From UHGV virus genome UHGV-0387474: a stretch of 44,321 nucleotides of DNA; one strand, written 5' to 3'. Each line of letters begins with the position of its first letter. Positions within the stretch are counted from its first letter, which is position 1. The notes beneath the pieces were generated by a model, which worked only from the letters and a program-made list of their open reading frames with translations, had not been told where the DNA came from and did no database searches. The position numbers were made by a program, and so were the translations under genes. This DNA is from a virus. Positions 1-44,321 of the stretch are shown here, piece after piece.

Positions 1-168
1 CCCGGCCGTTGCTGCTCCGTAGTCCCCGGCCGTTGCTGCTCCGCTGTCCCCGGCCGTTGCTGCTCCGCTGTACCCGGCCGTTGCTGCTCCGTAGTCCCCG
101 GCCGTTGCTGCTCCGCTGTCCCCGGCCGTTGCTGCTCCGTAGTCCCCGGCTGTTGCTGATTTAGATTC
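1..168. repeat. 24-bp tandem repeat array (6 full units + 1 degenerate), continuation of array at window end; coding (octapeptide repeats on minus strand)
   Basis: Units cccggccgttgctgctccg[tagtc/ctgtc/ctgta] starting at 1,25,49,73,97,121; degenerate unit ~145-168. Confidence 0.95.
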
Positions 169-501
169 TATACAAGTTTTTTCAACCTTTTCTTTGGTAT
201 ATTTAATTGCTGCATTTACAATTCCAGCAATATTCAGTTGCGCACCAATGCGCATCTTTGTTGATGCAATTTTACTATCATCATCGTGTCTGCTTATGTC
301 TCCACTCTGCTCTACCTCACAATACACAGATTTTGATGGTGGATAATATTTAAAACAATCAAGTGGGTATTCGCATGCATGCATACCGCATTCACAAGCC
401 ACGGCTTTATCTTCCTCGTAATCCTTTCCCACTTCATATTGTTTATTTTTGCAGGTCATATCCTTATTAAAACCTTTATACGATTTTATTATTTCTTCCA
501 T
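1..501 (-). CDS. N-terminal part (about 108 aa Cys-rich domain + first octapeptide repeats) of a ~375-aa repeat protein whose ORF continues at 44321..43698
   Basis: ATG at 501..499 preceded by GGAGGAAAC RBS; translation MEEIIKSYKGFNKDMTCKNKQYEVGKDYEEDKAVACECGMHACEYPLDCFKYYPPSK...IESKSATAGDYGAATAGDSGAATA...; frame open to position 1. Confidence 0.7.
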   Translation of the reverse strand, partial: MEEIIKSYKGFNKDMTCKNKQYEVGKDYEEDKAVACECGMHACEYPLDCFKYYPPSKSVYCEVEQSGDISRHDDDSKIASTKMRIGAQLNIAGIVNAAIKYTKEKVEKTCIESKSATAGDYGAATAGDSGAATAGDYGAATAGYSGAATAGDSGAATAGDYGAATAG

Positions 502-597
502 GTTTCCTCCTTTAATCTTGTCATTCCTACCCCTCTCCTTTATAATTTAAGTACAGGCGTTGCCGCGCCGAGTACATAAGAAAGGAATTAAAAACAT

Positions 598-777
598 ATG
601 GTTACAAAGTTTTGCCCGTTTATGAATGCAGACCCATCAGATTTGAAAAGCAAAACAGTTCCGTGTATGGATACATGTGCTTTATACTGGAAGGGATGTT
701 GCTCCATAAATGTTCTTGCCCAAAAAGCAACTCATGATTTTGAGCAAAAAAAGAAAGAAAAAGAGCTAGAAAAATAA
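598..777 (+). CDS. Small Cys-containing hypothetical protein (59 aa)
   Basis: ATG 598, MVTKFCPFMNADPSDLKSKTVPCMDTCALYWKGCCSINVLAQKATHDFEQKKKEKELEK; weak RBS; no competing minus-strand ORF. Confidence 0.3.
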   Translation: MVTKFCPFMNADPSDLKSKTVPCMDTCALYWKGCCSINVLAQKATHDFEQKKKEKELEK

Positions 778-1307: not shown

Positions 1308-1493
1308 TTAAGAAATAAGCTTGTCCACTTTGACTTTTAAAACATCTGCAACCGCTTTAAGGCTTTTTACTGTCGGGCTTGAATCGTTCCATTTGCTAAT
1401 AGCTCCGTTCTTTAATCCAGCCGCCACCTCTACCTGCCTAATGCTCAAGCTTTTTTCTTCGCAGATAGCCTTGATTTTGTCATAAATAAGCAA
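1308..1493 (-). CDS. Cro-like XRE-family HTH regulator (61 aa), TTG start
   Basis: MLIYDKIKAICEEKSLSIRQVEVAAGLKNGAISKWN... HTH paralogous to N-terminus of 2148..2528; AGGAGG RBS 7 nt upstream of TTG; divergent from repressor gene. Confidence 0.65.
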   Translation of the reverse strand: MLIYDKIKAICEEKSLSIRQVEVAAGLKNGAISKWNDSSPTVKSLKAVADVLKVKVDKLIS

Positions 1494-2000: not shown

Positions 2001-2147
2001 AAAATTATCATTTAAACATTCTTTTGAGATATATCGCTATCTCTTGTTTTTAGAAGTATTTCTGCGTTACACCTTTTATTATACAGAATTACTTCTAAAT
2101 GTCAATACTTTTTTGCACTTTTTTAGAAATAATTCTGGGAGGTAAAT

Positions 2148-2528
2148 ATGGACTTTTATGAACGATTAAATTCACTAATAAAATCTCAAGGATTGTCCCA
2201 AAGAAAAGTTGAACTCGAACTGGGATTAAGTAACGGAGCAATAAGTAAATGGAAAAAATATACTCCTAACATAGACAAAGTTAATTCTATCGCAAAATAT
2301 TTCCATGTACCGATAGAATGGTTACTGACTGGCGAAGAAAAATCCGAATCCCAAGGATACTACCTCAATTCCGAAACCGCTGAAATGGCACAGTCCATGT
2401 TTGACGACCCTGATATGCGAACTCTTTTTGACATGAAAAGGAATATGCCTCCTGAAAGATTTGCAGCTCATGTTAATTTCATGAAAGAATTATACGAAAA
2501 TGAAAAAAAGAACCGTTATGACGACTAA
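2148..2528 (+). CDS. CI-like repressor, XRE-family HTH (126 aa)
   Basis: MDFYERLNSLIKSQGLSQRKVELELGLSNGAISKWKK...; GGGAGG RBS; first gene of plus-strand lysogeny module. Confidence 0.7.
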   Translation: MDFYERLNSLIKSQGLSQRKVELELGLSNGAISKWKKYTPNIDKVNSIAKYFHVPIEWLLTGEEKSESQGYYLNSETAEMAQSMFDDPDMRTLFDMKRNMPPERFAAHVNFMKELYENEKKNRYDD

Positions 2529-5528: not shown

Positions 5529-6620
5529 TTGAAGGAGGAAAGAGAAATGACTACAAAAGCCCCGAAAAAGAAAAAAGGAGTACTGCCGTCTGGAAATGTC
5601 CGAGTGCAAGTATATCTGTATACAGATGATAAAGGCAAGCGGCATTACAAAAGCTTTGTTGCTCCATCACGCAAGGAAGCAAAGGAAATGGCTACTCGAT
5701 GGAAATTAGATATGAAAGATAAGCCCATAGAGCAATACAATGAACCGGATGAGGACGAGGATGAAGATATCACAGTCAATGATGCTATTGAACGCTATTT
5801 GAACGTCAAGAGCGGCGTTTTAAGCCCTTCTACGCTTAGGGGGTACACTGGTATGCAAAGACAGTATTTCGGCGGCGCATTTGGCCAAAAAAAGCTTTCT
5901 GAACTGACAAGTCCATCTGTGCAAATATGGGTAAGTAATTTAGCTGCAAAAAAACTATCTCCAAAGACGGTAAGAAATGCCTATGGTCTGTTATCTCCAA
6001 CACTGGAAATGTTTGCACCCGAATTAACTTTAAACGTTAAGCTGCCTCAAAAAAAACGTCCTAACTTATATTGCCCCAATGACAAGGATATTAAAAAGTT
6101 GCTGGACGCTATCAAAGGCACTGATTTAGAGATAGCCGTATTGCTGGCTGCGTTTGGTCCACTTAGAAGAGGAGAAATAAGCGCTCTAACCGATAAGGAC
6201 GTGGATGGTAAAATTATCCATGTAAGAGATAATATGGTCAAAGGGCCAGATAATCAATGGTACATCAAACAGCCTAAAACGGATGATAGTACGCGGGACG
6301 TAGAAATGCCAGCATTTGTAATTGACCGGATATCCGAAAAAAAAGGGAAGTTGGTTGACATGAACCCTGATTACATCACACACCGATTCGGACGAGTACT
6401 CAAAAAGATTGATATACCCCACTTCAGATTCCATGACCTGCGGCATTATGCTGCATCCATTATGCACGCCATAGGCATACCGGACCAATATATTTTACAA
6501 CGGGGAGGATGGGCCAGCGACAATATCATGAAAACTGTATACAGAAATGTGATTGACCTGGAATCCGTCCGGCAGAATAAAAAAATTAATAAGCACTTTG
6601 AAAAATTAAACAGCATGTAA
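5529..6620 (+). CDS. int: Tyrosine recombinase / phage integrase
   Basis: C-terminal HDLRHYAAS ... GGWAS ... VYRN (R-H-R-Y catalytic residues), N-terminal arm-binding-like domain, GGAGG RBS; attP immediately downstream. Confidence 0.9.
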   Translation: MKEEREMTTKAPKKKKGVLPSGNVRVQVYLYTDDKGKRHYKSFVAPSRKEAKEMATRWKLDMKDKPIEQYNEPDEDEDEDITVNDAIERYLNVKSGVLSPSTLRGYTGMQRQYFGGAFGQKKLSELTSPSVQIWVSNLAAKKLSPKTVRNAYGLLSPTLEMFAPELTLNVKLPQKKRPNLYCPNDKDIKKLLDAIKGTDLEIAVLLAAFGPLRRGEISALTDKDVDGKIIHVRDNMVKGPDNQWYIKQPKTDDSTRDVEMPAFVIDRISEKKGKLVDMNPDYITHRFGRVLKKIDIPHFRFHDLRHYAASIMHAIGIPDQYILQRGGWASDNIMKTVYRNVIDLESVRQNKKINKHFEKLNSM

Positions 6621-6637
6621 CAAAATGGCATATTTTT

Positions 6638-6657
6638 CGTGTTGCATCGTGTTGCAT
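6638..6657. promoter_or_regulatory. attP arm-type sites: two tandem CGTGTTGCAT decamers
   Basis: 6638..6647 and 6648..6657 identical. Confidence 0.6.
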
Positions 6658-6726
6658 ATATAATAAAAAATAGCATATCTTCCACCGTGGTAGGCGTAGG
6701 AAGTGCTGTATTAAAACATGAAAAAA

Positions 6727-6762
6727 CCTTGTAAATACGTTGTTTTTCCCGTATCTACAAGG
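6727..6762. promoter_or_regulatory. Candidate attP core: imperfect inverted repeat CCTTGTAAATACG / CGTATCTACAAGG around a 10-bp spacer TTGTTTTTCC
   Basis: 12/13 matching arms; lies midway between the two arm-site pairs; could also act as int terminator. Confidence 0.45.
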
Positions 6763-6831
6763 TTTTATGGAAAAGCTGCTGACGGGAATCGGACCCGTAA
6801 AATACAACGGTTTTATGCGGTTTGTAGGCCC

Positions 6832-6853
6832 CGTGTTGCATTTCGTGTTGCAT
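6832..6853. promoter_or_regulatory. attP arm-type sites: CGTGTTGCAT at 6832..6841 and 6844..6853
   Basis: Same decamer and orientation as 6638..6657. Confidence 0.6.
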
Positions 6854-6909
6854 ATTTCCGAAGATGGTATAATATTTTATAGAAGCGTCAGTGTAAAAAT
6901 CTGGCGCTT

Positions 6910-7695
6910 TTATATTGAATTAGAATCCTCTATGTACCAGATTTGCTGGGCGCCATTATCCTGGCTATGCCAGCAGGCTCCCTCCAGCAGTCCATTCGGT
7001 GTCGGGTCGAAATAGTACCAGTCTCCTGAGCCGTCCTCCGGGTCGCACACGGTGCCATTCCAGCGGTGCCAGCTGGTGCAGGCATAACCATCCTTATTAA
7101 ATAAGTACCAATGGTGATTTATGACACACCACTTATTAGCCGGGTAAGTTCCATCTGGTCTGCGGTACCACCAACCATTATTATCCTTAATCCACCCAGT
7201 ACGCTCCTGCTCAGTCCAGGTTTTCATGAATTGTTCTGGATTTTGGTACAATTTCTTGATACCACTGGTGGAGCTGCCCCAATCAGGAAGTTGAAAATGT
7301 GGCTTGTCCACAGGAGACTTCCAGTTTCCTCCCCATTCAAGACCGATAGATACGCCAATAGCACCTACACGGTTAAAGAAGCCGCCTATTTCGTTATAGG
7401 CTCCAGCGCCATCATTGCGGAATATATCAAAAGCCGTTCCCCATTGATGATAGGAGCTGTAGCTGCTGCCAGGAGCATTAGTTACAATGTTACCCGGTTT
7501 AGTCCTACCCTGAGCGTATAAAGCATCCTGTTCTGCCACGGTCCGCAGTGTCTCACCTATTTTAATTTTTAATCCCTGTTTATTGCATTCGTCCACCAAT
7601 TGACCTGCTAAAAGCTGTAAGCGTGGATGGCATAATGTGATATCTCTCATAATCATCCTCCAATTATGCTGTTTTTCTGCTGCTCTGTAATCCAT
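6910..7695 (-). CDS. Endolysin: peptidase M15 (VanY/L-Ala-D-Glu peptidase-like) catalytic domain + C-terminal CW_binding_1 (choline-binding-type) repeats
   Basis: SYHQWGTAFDI (SxHxxGxAxD) and DKPHFQL zinc-ligand motifs; C-terminal GWIKDNNGWWYRR.../HWYLFNKDGY.../GDWYYFDPTPNG repeats. Confidence 0.85.
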   Translation of the reverse strand: MDYRAAEKQHNWRMIMRDITLCHPRLQLLAGQLVDECNKQGLKIKIGETLRTVAEQDALYAQGRTKPGNIVTNAPGSSYSSYHQWGTAFDIFRNDGAGAYNEIGGFFNRVGAIGVSIGLEWGGNWKSPVDKPHFQLPDWGSSTSGIKKLYQNPEQFMKTWTEQERTGWIKDNNGWWYRRPDGTYPANKWCVINHHWYLFNKDGYACTSWHRWNGTVCDPEDGSGDWYYFDPTPNGLLEGACWHSQDNGAQQIWYIEDSNSI

Positions 7696-21167: not shown

Positions 21168-22340
21168 TTAAGAGTGAGACGTTATATCGTCATTTCCAGA
21201 TTTCAACGCCTTATAGGTATTGTCGCACTCAACTACTGTGATATGATTCCCGGTCGTTGCCTTGATATCAGATTTACCGTCCCACGCTGTCCACGTCTTT
21301 ACATTCTGCCCATATTTCACTTCTGGAGCGGAATCAGCTGCCACTTTGTACTTGTACATATGTCCGGTTTCGAGGGAAGGTTCAATGGTTAATTTTGTGT
21401 TTCCTGATGTGCTTCCGGCCGAAGAAGTTACCGTCAGTGTTCCAAGAACGGGATTATCAGTAATATCAACAACCGCGATTCCGTCAATATATTCTGCAAA
21501 CAAGGTAAGTCCCATTATTGCAAATGCTTCGGAAACAGCGGTATTGTAATTACCCTGGGTATGGAATCCGATAAGGTTTGTCTCTCCGTCCCCAGTAGTA
21601 TATACCAGACCAGCCCGTGAAAAATCGCTTTCATTTGGGTCAACATAGTACATTACAATGTTTTCCACTGGTGTAGCTATTACTTTTCCACTTTCGATTT
21701 CAGAATCAGATAGCAGAAAGATTGTATTGAATCCCATGAAATCCTTAAGATACTGGAAACCAAACTGATTCTGCACAGTGATTTCAGCGGCACCCAGGTA
21801 CTGATATACATCCAGAATATTCACAAATCCAACCACCCCCGTAACATTACGGTGCATCTGTTTGAATTTGTTTTCTACCATTCCTTTTGCCATAGCAAGG
21901 GCCATCTGGAATGTAGTTTCCGTTCCAGTAAGTGTGCCTGTGTTCAGATATGTATAGAATCGCCCTGTTACATTCGACTGAAGCTGAAACAAAAATTCAT
22001 CGTCTGTCATTTGCACAGCATTTTCATATCCGTGGTCTTTGATTGCCTCGATGGAAACGGCTTTCGCATATTTTTCGATAGTCATTTCTGCGTATTCCTT
22101 TTCCTTAACTACGAATTTGCTGTAAGGGATGTCCTCTCCTTCTCCTACTTTTCCGTTTTCCAGCGTTCCCTCGGCGTACTTGCTTTTCAGCGTAGCGCCG
22201 GGTTGCTTTTTAATCGGGCGCATAATGCCAAGAATATCCCGCAGGTGCTGCCAGTTTCTTTCAAACCGGGTAACAAAATCCAATTCCCGAGCCGTTACAT
22301 GAATATCTCCTGTTGTAATCAATTTAGCTTTCGCTGACAT
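21168..22340 (-). CDS. Major capsid protein (390 aa)
   Basis: Directly downstream of scaffold gene, size, strong RBS. Confidence 0.7.
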   Translation of the reverse strand: MSAKAKLITTGDIHVTARELDFVTRFERNWQHLRDILGIMRPIKKQPGATLKSKYAEGTLENGKVGEGEDIPYSKFVVKEKEYAEMTIEKYAKAVSIEAIKDHGYENAVQMTDDEFLFQLQSNVTGRFYTYLNTGTLTGTETTFQMALAMAKGMVENKFKQMHRNVTGVVGFVNILDVYQYLGAAEITVQNQFGFQYLKDFMGFNTIFLLSDSEIESGKVIATPVENIVMYYVDPNESDFSRAGLVYTTGDGETNLIGFHTQGNYNTAVSEAFAIMGLTLFAEYIDGIAVVDITDNPVLGTLTVTSSAGSTSGNTKLTIEPSLETGHMYKYKVAADSAPEVKYGQNVKTWTAWDGKSDIKATTGNHITVVECDNTYKALKSGNDDITSHS

Positions 22341-29612: not shown

Positions 29613-31040
29613 TTATTCCTCCTCAAACATCCTCGGCCCATCCTTCGGTTGTGCTTCCTGTACCATAGCCTTTGCATCTTCCTCGGATAACCCTTCAAAC
29701 TTCTGGAAATACATCCAGGGTGGTACCTTCCCCTGCACAACATACTGCCACCATCTTGCTCTGTCCTCTTCACGATTGTATGTAATGTCCCCAAAATCAT
29801 ATGTGATTTCGTAGTTGCCGGCGGGTGCCAGTCCGTACAGGTCAGCATATACATTGAGCGCATATATTGCGCCATCAAGGCAACTTTCCAGTTTGTCGCG
29901 CACATCCTTAATTAACTGGATAGTGCGGCGGTCATCAGCTTCTACCTGTGTTGCTGTGACCATACCTGTTTTTTCGTCAAGTACAAAGTACCCGTTGGAG
30001 TATCCGCACTTGAATCCAATAAATGAAAGAAGATTATTAATTCCAGTAAGTCTTATATCAGTATTTAACGATGGATTAATCTCATGGTAAAATTCTCCAT
30101 TACTATTTCCAAATACATTTCTTACATAATGGGGTAATTTAACTTTATTTACTCCTGGGCGTTTTAAATTTCTTCCATCACCAAGCATTAATTGGTCATC
30201 AATTAATATAATTTTCTCACTGTCAAATATTTCACCCACATTCCGACTATATGCCACATCAAGGTCCTTTAATTCTTCTATGGCCTCGGCAAACATTGGC
30301 AATCCCAAAGGTGATGAGATATCCAAATTGTTAGCCTGTGGAGTGCGGAGTACACCAAACATGGGGCCGTCTATTTTATCATTGTTAGCCTTGAGTATAG
30401 GCGGTGTATCTGGAAGTAAGTCAGACCACTTAGTCCTGTTTAATGCTATCGGGTCCCCCACACTTTTTGCAGACTGAGACACATAAGCTCTATTGGATAT
30501 GTAATATGGGTAATAGGTGTTTTCCCCCTCCTTGACCTCGACAAACCGATGATACTCAAACCGGGTATAATACTTATCATTTTCGCTGTAGCTATCCTTG
30601 AATACAATCCCATAGATACCTTCATTGTCACAATCCGTAATAATAAAGTCCATCGGTGTGAATATGTCCAGTCCCTTTCCATTGGGCTTAAGGATGATTG
30701 TGCCGTAGGCCATACCATACTCTACCCAGTGGCGAATCTGGAAATATATCTTGTCAATCTGCTCCTGGATCCACGCCGCCCGCGCACTCCCATCAATCTG
30801 TATTCCGATTGCCAGGGTAGCAAGTCGGGCCGTCTCTGAGCATATGGCCTTTGCAAAATTGATTGTCTTAACGTTATCGTCAGCATTCACCCAATAGGGA
30901 GTACCCCGGTAGATATTGGCGCACTCTGTAATCTTGCTTTCCATCTCCGGGGATACCACCGATTCAACATTGAAATCTTCTTCTGCCTGTCGCTTGAATA
31001 TCATTCCTATCACCTTTTTAGCCCATGTTATTAGTCCCAT
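29613..31040 (-). CDS. Portal protein
   Basis: 475 aa immediately after terminase large subunit. Confidence 0.8.
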   Translation of the reverse strand: MGLITWAKKVIGMIFKRQAEEDFNVESVVSPEMESKITECANIYRGTPYWVNADDNVKTINFAKAICSETARLATLAIGIQIDGSARAAWIQEQIDKIYFQIRHWVEYGMAYGTIILKPNGKGLDIFTPMDFIITDCDNEGIYGIVFKDSYSENDKYYTRFEYHRFVEVKEGENTYYPYYISNRAYVSQSAKSVGDPIALNRTKWSDLLPDTPPILKANNDKIDGPMFGVLRTPQANNLDISSPLGLPMFAEAIEELKDLDVAYSRNVGEIFDSEKIILIDDQLMLGDGRNLKRPGVNKVKLPHYVRNVFGNSNGEFYHEINPSLNTDIRLTGINNLLSFIGFKCGYSNGYFVLDEKTGMVTATQVEADDRRTIQLIKDVRDKLESCLDGAIYALNVYADLYGLAPAGNYEITYDFGDITYNREEDRARWWQYVVQGKVPPWMYFQKFEGLSEEDAKAMVQEAQPKDGPRMFEEE

Positions 31041-31049
31041 TTAGTCACC

Positions 31050-31259
31050 TTATGCCAAGAAATACCCATTTTCCTTTGCCGTATTCCATTCTGTTTCCCT
31101 AAATACCAATTCCGTTCTGTCTTTCTGTCCATAACAATCATACTCCAGAAAAACTTTCAGTAGTTTTTCCTTAGATGGTTTTCCGAACTTTTTTTCATAT
31201 TCATCTGTGATATCTTCAATTTTATAGACAGACAAAATAAAATGTTCTAATACATTCAT
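31050..31259 (-). CDS. Hypothetical protein (69 aa) between terminase and portal
   Basis: ORF with tight spacing. Confidence 0.4.
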   Translation of the reverse strand: MNVLEHFILSVYKIEDITDEYEKKFGKPSKEKLLKVFLEYDCYGQKDRTELVFRETEWNTAKENGYFLA

Positions 31260-32518
31260 TATGCGCTGTTCCCCCTTCTCATGGATAATGGGCTTGTGGC
31301 ATAGCGGAGTGCATCTATCCAGTGGTCATTTCCATCTGGGTAATCCGATATCACCTCACCGTTGCTGTCAACCTCATGCTCATATTCTATGATTTCTTTG
31401 TATGCCTGCGGTGTGCGTGCCGGGTCTATAACGATTGTACGGCACTGCAACCACTCAAAGGTGTATTTCCTGCTTCCTGGTGTTACAATGGCTCTGCGTG
31501 CCGGTAAACCAGCGTCACGGAAGTCTATAATGCTTTCTTCTTCATCCACACCACAATAGATTGTATAATCATCGTACCCAGCCGCCCGTATATCCTCTGC
31601 CATCTTACTATTACGGATTTTACAGCCGCCCATTTCATCAAGCAACACAACCAATTCTTTGTTTGGTATGTAAGCGGCCCGGATAAATGCTTTGGGGTCC
31701 GGGAACCAGCCCCAGTCTTGCCCCTGATATATGCTTTGGTATTTCTGGATTTCCTCGTCTGTGATTGTCCGTACATCCAGCATATCAAATATATTTGTAC
31801 CAAGTCCAACCGGCAAGCCTAAATACTCATGATTATATGCCCGCTCATTGGTGGCTTTAAGATGTTCTGCGCGTTCAATAAACATTTCTCCCATCCATTC
31901 AACCGGTACAGAACGGTAATCGCTTTTATGCCTATACGCGCTATCGTCTGGAGTATTTACATACTGATTAGCCCAGTTGCTTTGGCTGATGGGTGGGTTG
32001 AAGGATTTAAATACAACAAACTTGCTTCCACCACGCAACACTGACTGTTCAACAGTCCGTATTTCCTCCGGTCCTGCAAATTCATCCAATTCCTCAAACC
32101 ACAAATATTTGAAGTATCCCTTACTAGCTTTAATTGACTTTGTTTTCTTGGCTTTATCAAGTCCACGGAATATTATCTTTTGCCCTGTCGACTTATAAAC
32201 GAATCTGTATGGGCTTGTACGGGATTCCCACAAATCCGTAACGCCTAGCGCGTCTATGGCCCACTGTATCTGTTCAAATACTGATTCTCCGATTGTCACC
32301 GCATATTTACGAAACACTACCGCATTGGCCTCTGGGTCATCCATCATACCCAGTACAATCTCCACAGATATGAAAGAGGACTTCGTGGAACCTCGTCCGC
32401 CGTACAGGTCATAATATGTATGTTTACCTTCTAGGATATCCCAGTGAACATCGTAGAAAGAAGGGGCGATTACATCAGTCAGATTTATTGTTGTCTGGTC
32501 TTGGTATGTTGTTGACAA
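31259..32518 (-). CDS. terL: Terminase large subunit (PBSX/Terminase_3 type)
   Basis: Walker A YGGRGSTKS, 419 aa, overlaps TerS. Confidence 0.85.
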   Translation of the reverse strand: MSTTYQDQTTINLTDVIAPSFYDVHWDILEGKHTYYDLYGGRGSTKSSFISVEIVLGMMDDPEANAVVFRKYAVTIGESVFEQIQWAIDALGVTDLWESRTSPYRFVYKSTGQKIIFRGLDKAKKTKSIKASKGYFKYLWFEELDEFAGPEEIRTVEQSVLRGGSKFVVFKSFNPPISQSNWANQYVNTPDDSAYRHKSDYRSVPVEWMGEMFIERAEHLKATNERAYNHEYLGLPVGLGTNIFDMLDVRTITDEEIQKYQSIYQGQDWGWFPDPKAFIRAAYIPNKELVVLLDEMGGCKIRNSKMAEDIRAAGYDDYTIYCGVDEEESIIDFRDAGLPARRAIVTPGSRKYTFEWLQCRTIVIDPARTPQAYKEIIEYEHEVDSNGEVISDYPDGNDHWIDALRYATSPLSMRRGNSA

Positions 32519-36273: not shown

Positions 36274-36658
36274 TTTGGCCTCCTTCTAAAATATTAATTT
36301 ACTGGTTCCCAATACCAGTCAACCCGTTGCATGACAATTTCTTTTATATCATCTTCGATTTCTTCATCTGTCATCTCGTCCGGATATTCCAGCTCATCCT
36401 CTACATCAGTACCAGCGTATCCATAATTAGCTTTATATTTTATTTTTTTCATTTTCCATCTCCGTCAAATGCTAATTTTTCTGTTTTTGAATCAACTGTT
36501 CACACTCTTCTGGTGTCAATTTACACTGGCAACATTGACAATACTTCCCTGTTACCTCACATCTGTAATCCTCATCATACTCATTTCTATTGCGAAACGG
36601 AATAACTACAACATAAGGACAGTTATAAAAATCCATCTTATACCTTCTTCCTTAAATT

Positions 36659-38958: not shown

Positions 38959-39601
38959 TTGCTTCCTCCGACACCCAGTCTTTTACCTGTTTTAACATCA
39001 ATGCATCATAATCGGTATCTCGTTGTTCAAAATTGTGAAACTGATTTTTACTGCCTTTGGCGGTCGATTCCTGCCGCTGGCTTCGTACCCAGGTCCTTAC
39101 CGAGGCTTTCCAGTCCTTCATCTTGTTTTTCCCAACCATCCATCCCTTTGATGCATAAAAATCAACAAAACTCTCTGGGTCAATGCCATATCCATTCAAA
39201 GTGCAGTAATCGGACACATCCGACACCGAAGGTGGAGTAAATGTTTTTTTATTATTATCATTTACATTATCCTTTTCCTTTACATTATCCTTTTCCTTAG
39301 GTTTTGCTTTGGTTATGGTTTGGTTATCACTTGGTTTATTATAATTGGATTCTAGGTTATTGTTTGGTTCTGGTTTGATTACTGGCCTACCACCCTTGGT
39401 TCCGTTTTGGTATCTACGATTATTCGCATCAATTTGTGGTTTTGCCATTAAAAACATTGCCGATGCAACACCTGCCGATTTAGGCTCTATTTCATCGAGT
39501 CCATATTCTAATATTGCTGTAAGAGATTCCAATCTTTCTTTTTCCGGCAGCTGCTTAATAGCTTCCCAGAAACTGCGATAAAATACAACACTATCTCTCA
39601 T
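38942..39601 (-). CDS. Phage replisome organiser / DnaD-like replication protein (Phg_2220_C-type C-terminus)
   Basis: N-term FYRSFWEAIKQLPEKERLE; C-term FVDFYASKGWMVGKNKMKDWKASVRTWV. Confidence 0.55.
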   Translation of the reverse strand: MRDSVVFYRSFWEAIKQLPEKERLESLTAILEYGLDEIEPKSAGVASAMFLMAKPQIDANNRRYQNGTKGGRPVIKPEPNNNLESNYNKPSDNQTITKAKPKEKDNVKEKDNVNDNNKKTFTPPSVSDVSDYCTLNGYGIDPESFVDFYASKGWMVGKNKMKDWKASVRTWVRSQRQESTAKGSKNQFHNFEQRDTDYDALMLKQVKDWVSEEANERNT

Positions 39602-41243: not shown

Positions 41244-41942
41244 TTAATTCCAGGGAAGTCCACTGTCCTGCATATTATCTGGAGGGGCAGGATTCTCGTT
41301 AGAGGGTTTGTCCGGAGTGGACTTGAACCTTTTAATACAATCTCTATACTGAGATTCAACCATATCACTAAATTTTTCTACAGCATACAGAGAGCAGATG
41401 GCCCTCCAATGTTTACCAGTCCTCTCACACTCTGCTATCAAATCATTTACCTGCTCCTCGGTTAGCTTCTTTTCTTTTGAAGCACTCTTTTCATTTGATT
41501 CTGGAATTTGTTCGTTGTTGTATTTAGTCCGGTCTGAATCCCAATAAACATCAGCACCAATCCCAAGCTCCTTACATGCTACCGATATAGCATCTGTGGT
41601 TGCCATCTTGTAACATTCGTCAGAAACGTATATGCCGGATTTCTCTTTTGATGCAAACATGCTACCGCCGTTTCCGGGAATTGGTTTAGACCACTCTCCA
41701 TCAACCTTTATGTATAATTCGATATCTACAAAAGCTGCTATCTCATTGCCCGATGTTTCTAACCACTTTCGTGTAGGTATGTAGTACCACCCTATCCCAC
41801 ATGGACCGAACTGCTCAGTAAGGATTTTTATGCGCCACATAGGGTTGATATCGGTCATACCGCTGGTACGGCCTCCCTTAATGGTTTTCTTGGCGCTATC
41901 TGGGACAGAACGAACCTTTTCGTATAAATCAAGATTCTCCAT
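41244..41942 (-). CDS. ssDNA annealing protein, Rad52/Sak family
   Basis: ...FGPCGIGWYYIPTRKW...SMFASKEKSGIYVSDECYKMATTDAISVACKELGIGADVYWDSD pattern. Confidence 0.55.
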   Translation of the reverse strand: MENLDLYEKVRSVPDSAKKTIKGGRTSGMTDINPMWRIKILTEQFGPCGIGWYYIPTRKWLETSGNEIAAFVDIELYIKVDGEWSKPIPGNGGSMFASKEKSGIYVSDECYKMATTDAISVACKELGIGADVYWDSDRTKYNNEQIPESNEKSASKEKKLTEEQVNDLIAECERTGKHWRAICSLYAVEKFSDMVESQYRDCIKRFKSTPDKPSNENPAPPDNMQDSGLPWN

Positions 41943-43252: not shown

Positions 43253-43301
43253 CGTTTATCTCCTTCTCTTTCTCTTAATTCCCCGGCTCTTGCCGTTCTT
43301 C

Positions 43302-43568
43302 TTAATCCTGGCTTTCTGTCCCATTCTCTAAGTCTCCTTGTGTTCCTGTGTTGATGTTGTTCAGTCCGGTGCCATCCTGGGAAACATAGTCATATGTACC
43401 CGCGGTATAAAGCCATGCAGCATTGGTGCCTATCAACGCCGCCAGCGTTACCAGGAACGCTATAAACCAATATTTTGCATTCCTCTTGCTCTGCTCTATT
43501 ACCTCTACAGCAAAATACTGCTCCAGCCCTTCCCGTGTTGGCTTGTCCTTCTGGTTTTCAATGTTCAT
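43302..43568 (-). CDS. Single-pass membrane protein (88 aa)
   Basis: TM YWFIAFLVTLAALIGTNAAWLY. Confidence 0.45.
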   Translation of the reverse strand: MNIENQKDKPTREGLEQYFAVEVIEQSKRNAKYWFIAFLVTLAALIGTNAAWLYTAGTYDYVSQDGTGLNNINTGTQGDLENGTESQD

Positions 43569-43697
43569 AATTTTTTTCCTCCTGTGCTTGCGTAATACAG
43601 GAGAAAATGGTAAAATATTCCTGTATCCGCATTAGTTTGGGTAATGTGGTTACGGCTCCGGTTGGTGTTTGTGGCACCGCCGGGGCATTTTATAAAT

Positions 43698-44321
43698 CTA
43701 ATCTTCCGCTTCTATGAGTTCTCCATCTTTAAGCATGTACCATGTATCTGCTTTGATGTTTACTCCATCAACAACTACTGCTTTCCAGTCGGAAATTTTA
43801 CAGCTATTTTGTTCTTCTTCTGCAATAACCAAAATCGAACCTAGCCCTCCTTTTGCCTTTACCCCTTTTCCTCTTGCAACAGATAATCCGTTTTCGCCTG
43901 TTGATGATTTTCCACGACTTGTTGCTGCTCCTCTGTCCCCGGCCGTTGCTGCTCCGTAGTCCCCGGCCGTTGCTGCTCCGCTGTCCCCGGCCGTTGCTGC
44001 TCCGCTGTACCCGGCTGTTGCTGCTCCGCTGTACCCGGCCGTTGCTGCTCCGCTGTACCCGGCTGTTGCTGCTCCTCTGTTCCCGGCTGTTGCTGCTCCG
44101 TAGTCCCCGGCTGTTGCTGCTCCGTAGTCCCCGGCCGTTGCTGCTCCTCTGTCCCCGGCTGTTGCTGCTCCGCTGTACCCGGCTGTTGCTGCTCCTCTGT
44201 CCCCGGCCGTTGCTGCTCCGCTGTCCCCGGCCGTTGCTGCTCCGCTGTACCCGGCCGTTGCTGCTCCGTAGTCCCCGGCCGTTGCTGCTCCGCTGTCCCC
44301 GGCCGTTGCTGCTCCGCTGTA
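43698..44321 (-). CDS. C-terminal part of the wrap-around repeat protein: ~17 more G-[D/Y/N]-[Y/S/R]-G-A-A-T-A octapeptides then a 78-aa C-terminal domain
   Basis: Same frame as 1..501 across the junction; ends ...SRGKSSTGENGLSVARGKGVKAKGGLGSILVIAEEEQNSCKISDWKAVVVDGVNIKADTWYMLKDGELIEAED, stop TAG at 43698..43700. Confidence 0.7.
   Translation of the reverse strand, partial: YSGAATAGDSGAATAGDYGAATAGYSGAATAGDSGAATAGDRGAATAGYSGAATAGDRGAATAGDYGAATAGDYGAATAGNRGAATAGYSGAATAGYSGAATAGYSGAATAGDSGAATAGDYGAATAGDRGAATSRGKSSTGENGLSVARGKGVKAKGGLGSILVIAEEEQNSCKISDWKAVVVDGVNIKADTWYMLKDGELIEAED
43914..44321. repeat. 24-bp tandem repeat array (16 full units + degenerate leading unit), in phase with array at 1..168
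   Basis: Units start 43938 and every 24 bp to 44298; last unit ends exactly at 44321 and unit 1 starts at position 1. Confidence 0.95.

Follow-up and report, generated by a model that had tools for sequence, protein, structure and literature searches.

A phage genome that appears to close inside the coding repeat of a DUF7666 gene with a predicted ADP-ribosyltransferase-like head

The virus genome UHGV-0387474, whose whole length of 44,321 nucleotides is the window analyzed here, is a complete temperate siphovirus-type phage genome that the assembler opened within the tandem coding repeat of an early gene. The two contig ends are almost certainly the two halves of this single minus-strand gene, the contig closing on itself, and we are equally close to certain that the gene belongs to the DUF7666 family, of the type represented by Bbp36 ("VR2") of Bordetella phage BPP-1. 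The gene is not new in kind: it adds a member to a known but uncharacterized family. Taking all parts together, we lean, if only narrowly, toward an explanation in which a closed genome encodes a cytoplasmic DUF7666 effector composed of an ADP-ribosyltransferase (ART)-like head and a tunable rod.

The gene can be followed across the junction. Its 5′ part (1..501, minus strand) begins at an ATG (501..499) preceded by an AGGAGG ribosome-binding site (506..511, minus strand, 5 nt upstream), encodes the N-domain and the first array units, and stays open down to base 1; the frame resumes at 44321 in the 3′ part (43698..44321, minus strand), which holds the remaining array units and the C-terminal domain and ends at a TAG stop (43700..43698), the array being read in frame throughout. 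Tandem Repeats Finder reports the 24-bp array at both ends, with 16.7 copies and 91% matches at 43921..44320 and 6.6 copies at 1..158; with at most 3 mismatches, the unit occurs 17 times in the whole window, at the two ends only, and not once in shuffled sequences. Units 1-6 and the start of unit 7 lie at 1..150 and the remainder of unit 7 through unit 23 at 43920..44321 (both minus strand), each unit following the codon pattern GCC GGG NAC NNN GGA GCA GCA ACR, that is, A-G-x-x-G-A-A-T. Thousands of full-length homologues cover 100% of the joined protein, N-domain, array, and C-domain alike.

The contig ends also share sequence. Bases 1..72 are an exact copy of 44250..44321 (prefix equal to suffix, three units that read YS-DS-DY at their two variable positions), and in the joined array, units 2-11 repeat DS-DY-YS without a mismatch over 240 bp, at a period of 72 bp; the ends therefore overlap by three units. 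Joined simply end to end, the gene encodes 374 aa with 23 full A-G-x-x-G-A-A-T units, and with the overlap collapsed it encodes 350 aa with 20 units. The initial annotation had proposed the closed circle, the open reading frame (ORF) running from 501 with its ribosome-binding site to the stop at 43698, and the view that the apparent terminal repeats are one internal coding array of one gene, all of which the overlap, the homologues spanning both halves, and the related contig described below bear out; its figure of about 24 units and 375 aa missed the 72-bp overlap and probably counts three units twice. It had also distrusted the copy number, and with reason: the sequence does not fix this number, because the periodic run in which the ends fall is perfect and exceeds the usual length of assembly k-mers, and the array could contain 17 + 3n units, with n at least 1.

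Independent support for closure comes from L007, a related 21.6-kb metagenomic contig in which the gene is uninterrupted (P0045, 246 aa, 7 units) and has the same neighbors as in the window: an integrase, CI-like and Cro-like genes, small ORFs, the gene itself, an 88-aa ORF, and an HNH protein. In blastn alignments, window segments 586->1|44321->44233 and 44095->43257 match L007 3850-5116 at 97% identity (96.9% for 44095..43257), with flanks at 96-99%. Because L007 carries the gene unbroken between the same neighbors at 97%, the window represents a genome that is either closed or circularly permuted. A terminal repeat within a tandem array proves little about circularity when synteny does not back it, but here synteny does; the 72-bp overlap, the continuity of the ORF, and the synteny with L007 together make the window, by the direct-terminal-repeat criterion, a complete circular or terminally redundant genome.

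Variation within the array is restricted to 5 of the 24 columns of the unit (7, 10-12, and 24). In codon 3, the first base alone varies (G/T/A, giving D/Y/N) and the A at position 2 is invariant; codon 4 is TAC, AGC, or AGA (Y/S/R); and the Thr codon changes synonymously between ACG and ACA. The initial annotation had noted that variation is limited to two codons and this synonymous change and had judged it non-neutral. Among 1457 units from the 120 best homologues, unit positions 1, 2, 5, 6, 7, and 8 are almost invariant (entropy ≤0.28 bits), whereas position 3 (D/N/Y) reaches 1.7 bits and position 4 (Y/S/R/C/H) 2.5 bits, a pattern that, at the level of sequence, supports non-neutral variation confined to two residues. 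Unit number ranges from 5 to 22 across these 120 homologues, and a comparison of close relatives, suggested earlier as a check, proved informative: phages with 96-100% identical N-domains carry 5-17 units in differing orders, and their last unit or units tend to be common. Because such near-identical relatives differ in both the number and the order of units, the array appears to change by unequal recombination or slippage. Between lineages, the unit DNA differs, with entirely different codons, while the peptide pattern is retained, and some lineages, for example, those of Blautia phage Montmirail, Ralstonia phage Firinga, and Acinetobacter phages, use 9-residue units; since other lineages encode the same peptide pattern with different codons, the constraint is on the protein and not on the DNA. 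Variation of the kind produced by a diversity-generating retroelement (DGR) was considered and rejected: no copy of the unit occurs outside the array at ≤3 mismatches, and the differences are not adenine-specific, the middle A of codon 3 being fixed.

The family assignment comes from the N-terminal domain (214..489, minus strand; aa 5-96), which matches Pfam DUF7666 (PF24703) with 123.2 bits (cutoff 27; E 6e-36) over positions 1-94 of the 95-position profile and is predicted to have an ART-like fold; the gene also matches phrog_4433 (E 1.4e-66). When 8000 candidate homologues were scored, 6985 matched, and the family splits into 5151 clusters at 50% identity. NCBIfam returned no match for the protein, and no mention of DUF7666 was found in the literature searched. 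The 73-aa C-terminal domain (43701..43919, minus strand; SRGKSS...VDGVNIKADTWY...AED), delimited with phrog_27197, the alignment, the model, and the Bbp36 sequence, is predicted to combine degenerate last coils with a small beta domain; its Pfam matches are insignificant only, and its motif VDGxxIKxDTWY is kept across the family, including BPP-1 Bbp36. Bbp36 itself scores as DUF7666 (41.7 bits, cutoff 27), carries 14 or so AGYRGTAT units in an array 67% identical to that of the window (BLASTP), and is encoded just downstream of cI in BPP-1. The bbp36 VR2 is described in PMC2884959 as a 24-bp element of 19 constant bp and a variable spacer of 5 bp, present in 9-20 copies according to the isolate, apparently with no link to tropism, and noted in 2002-2004 (Liu et al. 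2002/2004, as cited there). Bbp36 scores as DUF7666 and has the same repeat and C-terminal motif; the window gene therefore joins a family whose repeat has been on record for more than 20 years. The match supplies a family name rather than an explanation, because the function of Bbp36 is equally without assignment. DUF7666 ranges over phages of Firmicutes, Bacteroidota, and Proteobacteria in thousands of 50%-identity clusters, and the domain also occurs in giant viruses.

The architecture of the protein was predicted with AlphaFold2 from a 40-sequence alignment (mean predicted local distance difference test score [pLDDT] 90.4; predicted template modeling score [pTM] 0.72). In this model, the array consists of regular 4-residue strands (A-A-T-A) alternating with 4-residue turns (G-x-x-G), and it probably forms a flat, thin two-sheet beta-solenoid with two units per coil, in which the variable dipeptide would be displayed at the two narrow edges; the initial annotation had already suspected a beta-solenoid, and AlphaFold predicts one at a pLDDT of 90. 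For the model of the N-domain (~110 aa), the best PDB matches are all ART folds, the structures listed being PARP13, Arr, PARP4, SRO1, the Rhs toxins TreX and TreTu, diphtheria toxin, PARP10, and RCD1. On this structural resemblance, we think an ART fold reasonably likely; that the domain is an active ART, on the other hand, seems doubtful. Sequence profiles make no such connection: Pfam and NCBIfam give DUF7666 or nothing, a profile search of PDB sequences finds no ART, and neither full-length nor N-domain profiles yield a sequence-level link to solved structures. Among 147 representatives, the most conserved N-domain residues are K9, C17, C36, G39, H41, C43, P46, Y53, V63, and K77; H41 and Y53 are conserved at 95%, E64 at 80%, and E62 at 73%, and C17, C36, H41, and C43 fall between 87 and 95%. 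H41, Y53, and E64 could constitute an H-Y-E motif. In three near-identical Acinetobacter phages, the homologue was independently annotated by their authors as an ADP-ribosyltransferase (195, 345, and 291 aa; PMC7354433); that of fLi-Aba02 lies at 2959-3996 of L011, and the Acinetobacter unit is the 9-residue T-G-D-N-S-A-S-S-A.

BFVD gave a view of the domain beyond phages. A fold search with the full-length model returned DUF7666 domains in proteins of the giant viruses Hyperionvirus and Sylvanvirus, and the N-domain model also matched the N-terminal ~110 residues of many ankyrin-repeat proteins of mimivirus, megavirus, and moumouvirus; these model-based matches suggest a reusable head domain mounted on differing repeat scaffolds.

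We envisage a cytoplasmic protein of three parts, a ~110-aa ART-fold head, a rod of at least 20 octapeptide units, and, at the C-terminus, a conserved small beta domain. By slippage or unequal recombination, 24-bp units would be gained, lost, and reshuffled, with the frame always kept, and near-identical phages would end up with rods that differ in length and in edge residues. The ART-like head would act on a host or defense target, by modifying or binding it, and the recombination-tunable rod would set (i) its reach and/or (ii) its recognition, by analogy with Tweety gp54, whose repeat-number mutants overcome a prophage (p)ppGpp-synthetase defense and for which the model is one of domain juxtaposition tuned by repeats (PMC9262239). 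The position of the gene, early regulatory or accessory and beside CI/Cro, recurs in six unrelated phages or prophages (the window with L007, Blautia phage Montmirail, a Phocaeicola dorei prophage, Pseudomonas phage YA3, BPP-1, and Acinetobacter phage fLi-Aba02). Phage ARTs, namely, T4 Alt, ModA, and ModB as well as AcrIF11, act in takeover or anti-defense. By these analogies, an early role in host takeover or counter-defense may be suggested, although tentatively and at a confidence short of even. A bolder generalization, which we think unlikely, is that DUF7666 proteins are an unrecognized major class of early ART-fold effectors whose target range is retuned by minisatellite-like shuffling of coils; the solenoid coils would then display a two-residue code (D/N/Y and Y/S/R/C/H), and the array would be a recombination-based counterpart of DGR diversification, serving counter-defense or host takeover.

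Several points weigh against this explanation. The candidate catalytic Glu is not invariant (E62 73%, E64 80%), and C17, C36, H41, and C43 could form a structural metal site instead. AlphaFold readily produces solenoids for any short repeat. PADLOC has no match for the protein, although PADLOC covers defense systems, not anti-defense proteins. A true circle is not distinguishable from a circularly permuted or concatemeric linear genome. Homology to Tweety gp54 was rejected, since that protein has no DUF7666 domain and unrelated termini, and the comparison is one of design only. Finally, Bbp36/VR2 has been without an assigned role for 20 years.

It is conceivable, if unlikely, that the N-domain has no catalytic activity, being a pseudo-ART or a metal-binding adaptor, and that the protein acts only by binding, as a rigid adjustable spacer; it would lock or sequester a host or defense complex, and repeat number would tune the distance between N- and C-domains, as for Tweety gp54. 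The lower conservation of E62 and E64 (73-80%, versus 87-95% for C17, C36, H41, and C43) fits this proposal, as does the Tweety model of domain juxtaposition. H41 and Y53, however, show the conservation seen in H-Y-E ARTs, position 64 is Glu in most members, and the restricted alphabets of the turns (D/N/Y and Y/S/R/C/H) suggest a recognition surface over a mere ruler.

The ART-like protein might instead harm the cell or a superinfecting phage, as a prophage toxin or exclusion (defense) factor restrained by a neighboring small protein in a toxin-antitoxin or abortive-infection module. The authors of the Acinetobacter phage study speculated about a toxin-antitoxin pair with an upstream 78-aa gene (PMC7354433), and in several phages the gene is on the CI side. 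In the window, however, it lies on the Cro side, in the lytic early direction; across the contexts compared it has no conserved partner gene, in other phages the family is also found among replication genes, and PADLOC, as noted, is silent. We regard such a module as improbable.

The protein is acidic (isoelectric point [pI] 4.75), and its array is more so (pI 4.05, net charge about -10), with a regular ladder of Asp at the turns; a phage pentapeptide-repeat protein is, moreover, among the structural neighbors in BFVD. These features would suit an acidic rod that imitates nucleic acid, in the manner of Ocr or pentapeptide-repeat proteins, and as a decoy titrates a DNA-binding host enzyme or a restriction system. 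Yet there is only about one Asp per 8 residues, Arg is common at the adjacent position, many homologues have N, Y, C, or H instead, and the conserved N- and C-domains would be left unexplained, all of which makes mimicry a decidedly improbable reading.

The same repeat had been likened in the initial annotation to a variable surface or ice-nucleation-like protein, and a surface-exposed or virion repeat protein, ice-nucleation-like or adhesin-like, can be imagined; the A-G-Y-x-G-x-x-T composition resembles the ice-nucleation octapeptide AGYGSTxT. These labels are unsupported, because the protein has no signal peptide or membrane anchor (its N-terminus, MEEIIKSYKGFNKD, is acidic) and has no Pfam match to the ice-nucleation, RTX, or YadA families; the gene lies in an early regulatory region rather than in the structural module, and the host is a gut anaerobe. 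Membership in the ice-nucleation, RTX, pentapeptide, and YadA families was rejected, as neither Pfam nor NCBIfam gave a match, and the ice-nucleation protein in particular (16-residue AGYGSTxTAxxxSxLx repeats and an N-domain that anchors it in the membrane) was set aside on the lack of a Pfam match at E ≤1, the 8-residue unit with its differing motif, and the DUF7666 N-domain. A surface or virion role is thus poorly supported and very hard to credit, and the same grade of support applies to the two remaining alternatives.

The first of these holds that the repeat acts as DNA, as origin iterons, a pac site, or a recombination hot spot, and that coding is incidental. In some phages the gene has replication genes as neighbors, the GC content is 70% in the array and 40% in the genome, and contig ends repeatedly fall within arrays of this kind. 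Against this stand the conservation of the peptide pattern across phyla while the unit DNA is completely different, units of 24 or 27 bp that are always in frame, the near invariance of 6 of 8 residues with synonymous changes tolerated, and the fact that assemblers break at any long perfect repeat; we give the idea almost no credence. Just as negligible is an assembly chimera, in which each end would stem from the array of a different phage or locus and the circle would be false: the terminal repeat is itself tandemly repeated within the contig and so is weak evidence of circularity alone, but both flanks are found united in L007 at 97% identity, one set of full-length homologues matches the N half and the C half alike, and the gene complement of the window is complete and nonredundant.

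The tendency of assemblers to break here extends well beyond the window. In public phage records, 10 of the 25 best tblastn matches to the N-domain fall within ~650 bp of a record end, and several of these near-end records have no annotated feature at the gene. The matches include Firinga (MT740737/NC_054961, 308-613), Albius (MT740726, 223-528), Raharianne (MT740745/NC_054955, 161-466), PAShipCat1 (PP067092, 301-645), MK511048/50/39 (about 61143-61544 of 61772), and MT835477 (84341-84667 of 84755). In Ralstonia phage Firinga, the gene is still open at base 1 and is taken up again, in frame, at the last base; the repeats and the C-domain lie at the opposite end of the record. Because the matches cluster at record ends and the Firinga gene spans them, we infer that the array breaks many published "complete" genomes and hides the gene.

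The remainder of the window is that of a temperate tailed phage. Scans with PHROG assign a CI-like gene (2148..2528, plus strand), an integrase (5529..6620, plus), an endolysin (7695..6910, minus), a major capsid protein (22340..21168, minus), a portal (31040..29613, minus), a large terminase (32518..31259, minus), and an exonuclease (41942..41244, minus). Between the convergent integrase and endolysin genes lies an attP-like intergenic region (6620-6910), with three copies of TTTCGTGTTGCAT at 6635, 6645, and 6841 and a 17-nt inverted repeat at 6723-6766. Because all temperate tailed-phage modules are present and the attP-like region is far from the junction, the window is best described as a complete phage genome opened inside a gene; it contains no tRNA genes. 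The host is probably Enterocloster, to judge from a homologue of E. bolteae in NCBI and from short DNA stretches that match Enterocloster phages. No near-identical annotated phage was found; the sole megablast similarity to cultured phages is a stretch of ~370 bp (window ~36287-36656) that matches hypothetical proteins of Enterocloster phages CB473P3 and CB457P1 at 90-92%, apparently a small mosaic block that supports this host. Elsewhere, a perfect 18-bp tandem repeat (TTTACATTATCCTTTTCC, 2.1 copies) lies at 39261-39298 inside a 219-aa minus-strand ORF (phrog_15768).

Around the repeat gene, the early region is less simple than an operon. The gene is preceded on the same strand by two small ORFs and a Cro-like helix-turn-helix gene (1493..1308, minus strand; phrog_8/phrog_18248, E about 2e-8), the first same-strand gene upstream. 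It had been described as the fourth gene of an early, Cro-first operon: its placement in the early region downstream of the Cro-like gene stands, while the simple four-gene operon is plausible but not established, because an opposite-strand ORF with a promoter sits between the third gene and the repeat gene. This ORF (598..777, plus strand), directly upstream of the repeat gene, encodes a small Cys-rich protein of 59 aa (MVTKFCPFMNADPSD...CMDTCALYWKGCCS...), has no PHROG match, lies among the early genes and overlaps the end of a 92-aa ORF, and is found in the same arrangement in L007; a near-consensus promoter-like site, TTGTCA-17-TATAAT, at 518..546 would serve its side. No intrinsic terminator was detected between the repeat gene and the next gene. 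In the Cro-like/CI-like switch region (1500-2140), the palindrome AGAATATATTCT occurs at 1551-1563 and 1984-1996, positions 2049-2099 hold an inverted repeat (TTTAGAAGTATTTCTG/CAGAATTACTTCTAAA), and the minus strand carries a perfect TTGACA-16-TATAAT at 2105..2078; these sites are likely operators and promoters.

Closure of the contig is in itself ordinary; the family that it exposes is a large and long-known one that still lacks an explanation but has become testable. What is added here is the link to VR2, a predicted ART-fold head joined to a two-edged variable solenoid, and the array as a repeated breaker of assemblies. The recurrent breakpoint affects even cultured phages deposited as complete genomes, such as Firinga, and copy numbers of the repeat gene taken from short-read assemblies are not trustworthy. 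An ART-fold head, a variable rod, and the Tweety gp54 precedent would together make the protein a concrete candidate for a tunable counter-defense or takeover effector; if this is true, the family would be a new one among phage ARTs and would change its specificity rapidly in a new way.

Each part of the protein has known counterparts from which it also departs. Among two-sheet beta-solenoids, the ice-nucleation and antifreeze proteins, curli CsgA, YadA-type heads, and RTX beta-rolls share the predicted strand-turn-strand-turn coils built from short Gly/Ala/Thr-rich repeats, but the window protein differs in repeat length and motif, lacks the Ca2+-binding GGxGxD motif and a secretion signal, is cytoplasmic and phage-encoded, and carries its variable residues in turns rather than on a flat ice-binding face. 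With the ART-fold proteins compared (BC2332 [2aua], Arr, Tpt1/KptA, PARP catalytic domains, AcrIF11, and the Rhs toxins TreX and TreTu), DUF7666 may have in common an H-Y-E motif, to which its conserved His and Tyr and mostly conserved Glu could correspond, whereas its domain of ~100 residues is smaller than known active ARTs and its three conserved cysteines are not a feature of ARTs. Bbp36 is closest: it has a 24-bp in-frame unit that combines a constant block with a short variable one and encodes the octapeptide A-G-x-x-G-x-A-T, a copy number that varies between isolates (9-20 in the account cited above), a position in the early region beside cI/cro, and, at its termini, a DUF7666 N-domain and the C-terminal motif ...DGIKADT.Y..., of the general form DG-x-x-IK-x-DT-W/K-Y. 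Its N-domain similarity is nonetheless distant, its units are nearly all YR where the window array mixes DY, DS, YS, DR, and NR, and its host is a Gram-negative respiratory pathogen rather than a gut Firmicute. Tweety gp54, finally, has no DUF7666 or other Pfam match, unrelated and helical-looking termini, and a 4-residue A-A-x-x unit, but it is likewise an early protein in which conserved N- and C-termini surround a high-GC, Ala-rich coding repeat, with two variable residues per unit and a repeat number that differs among close relatives (PMC2884959; PMC9262239).

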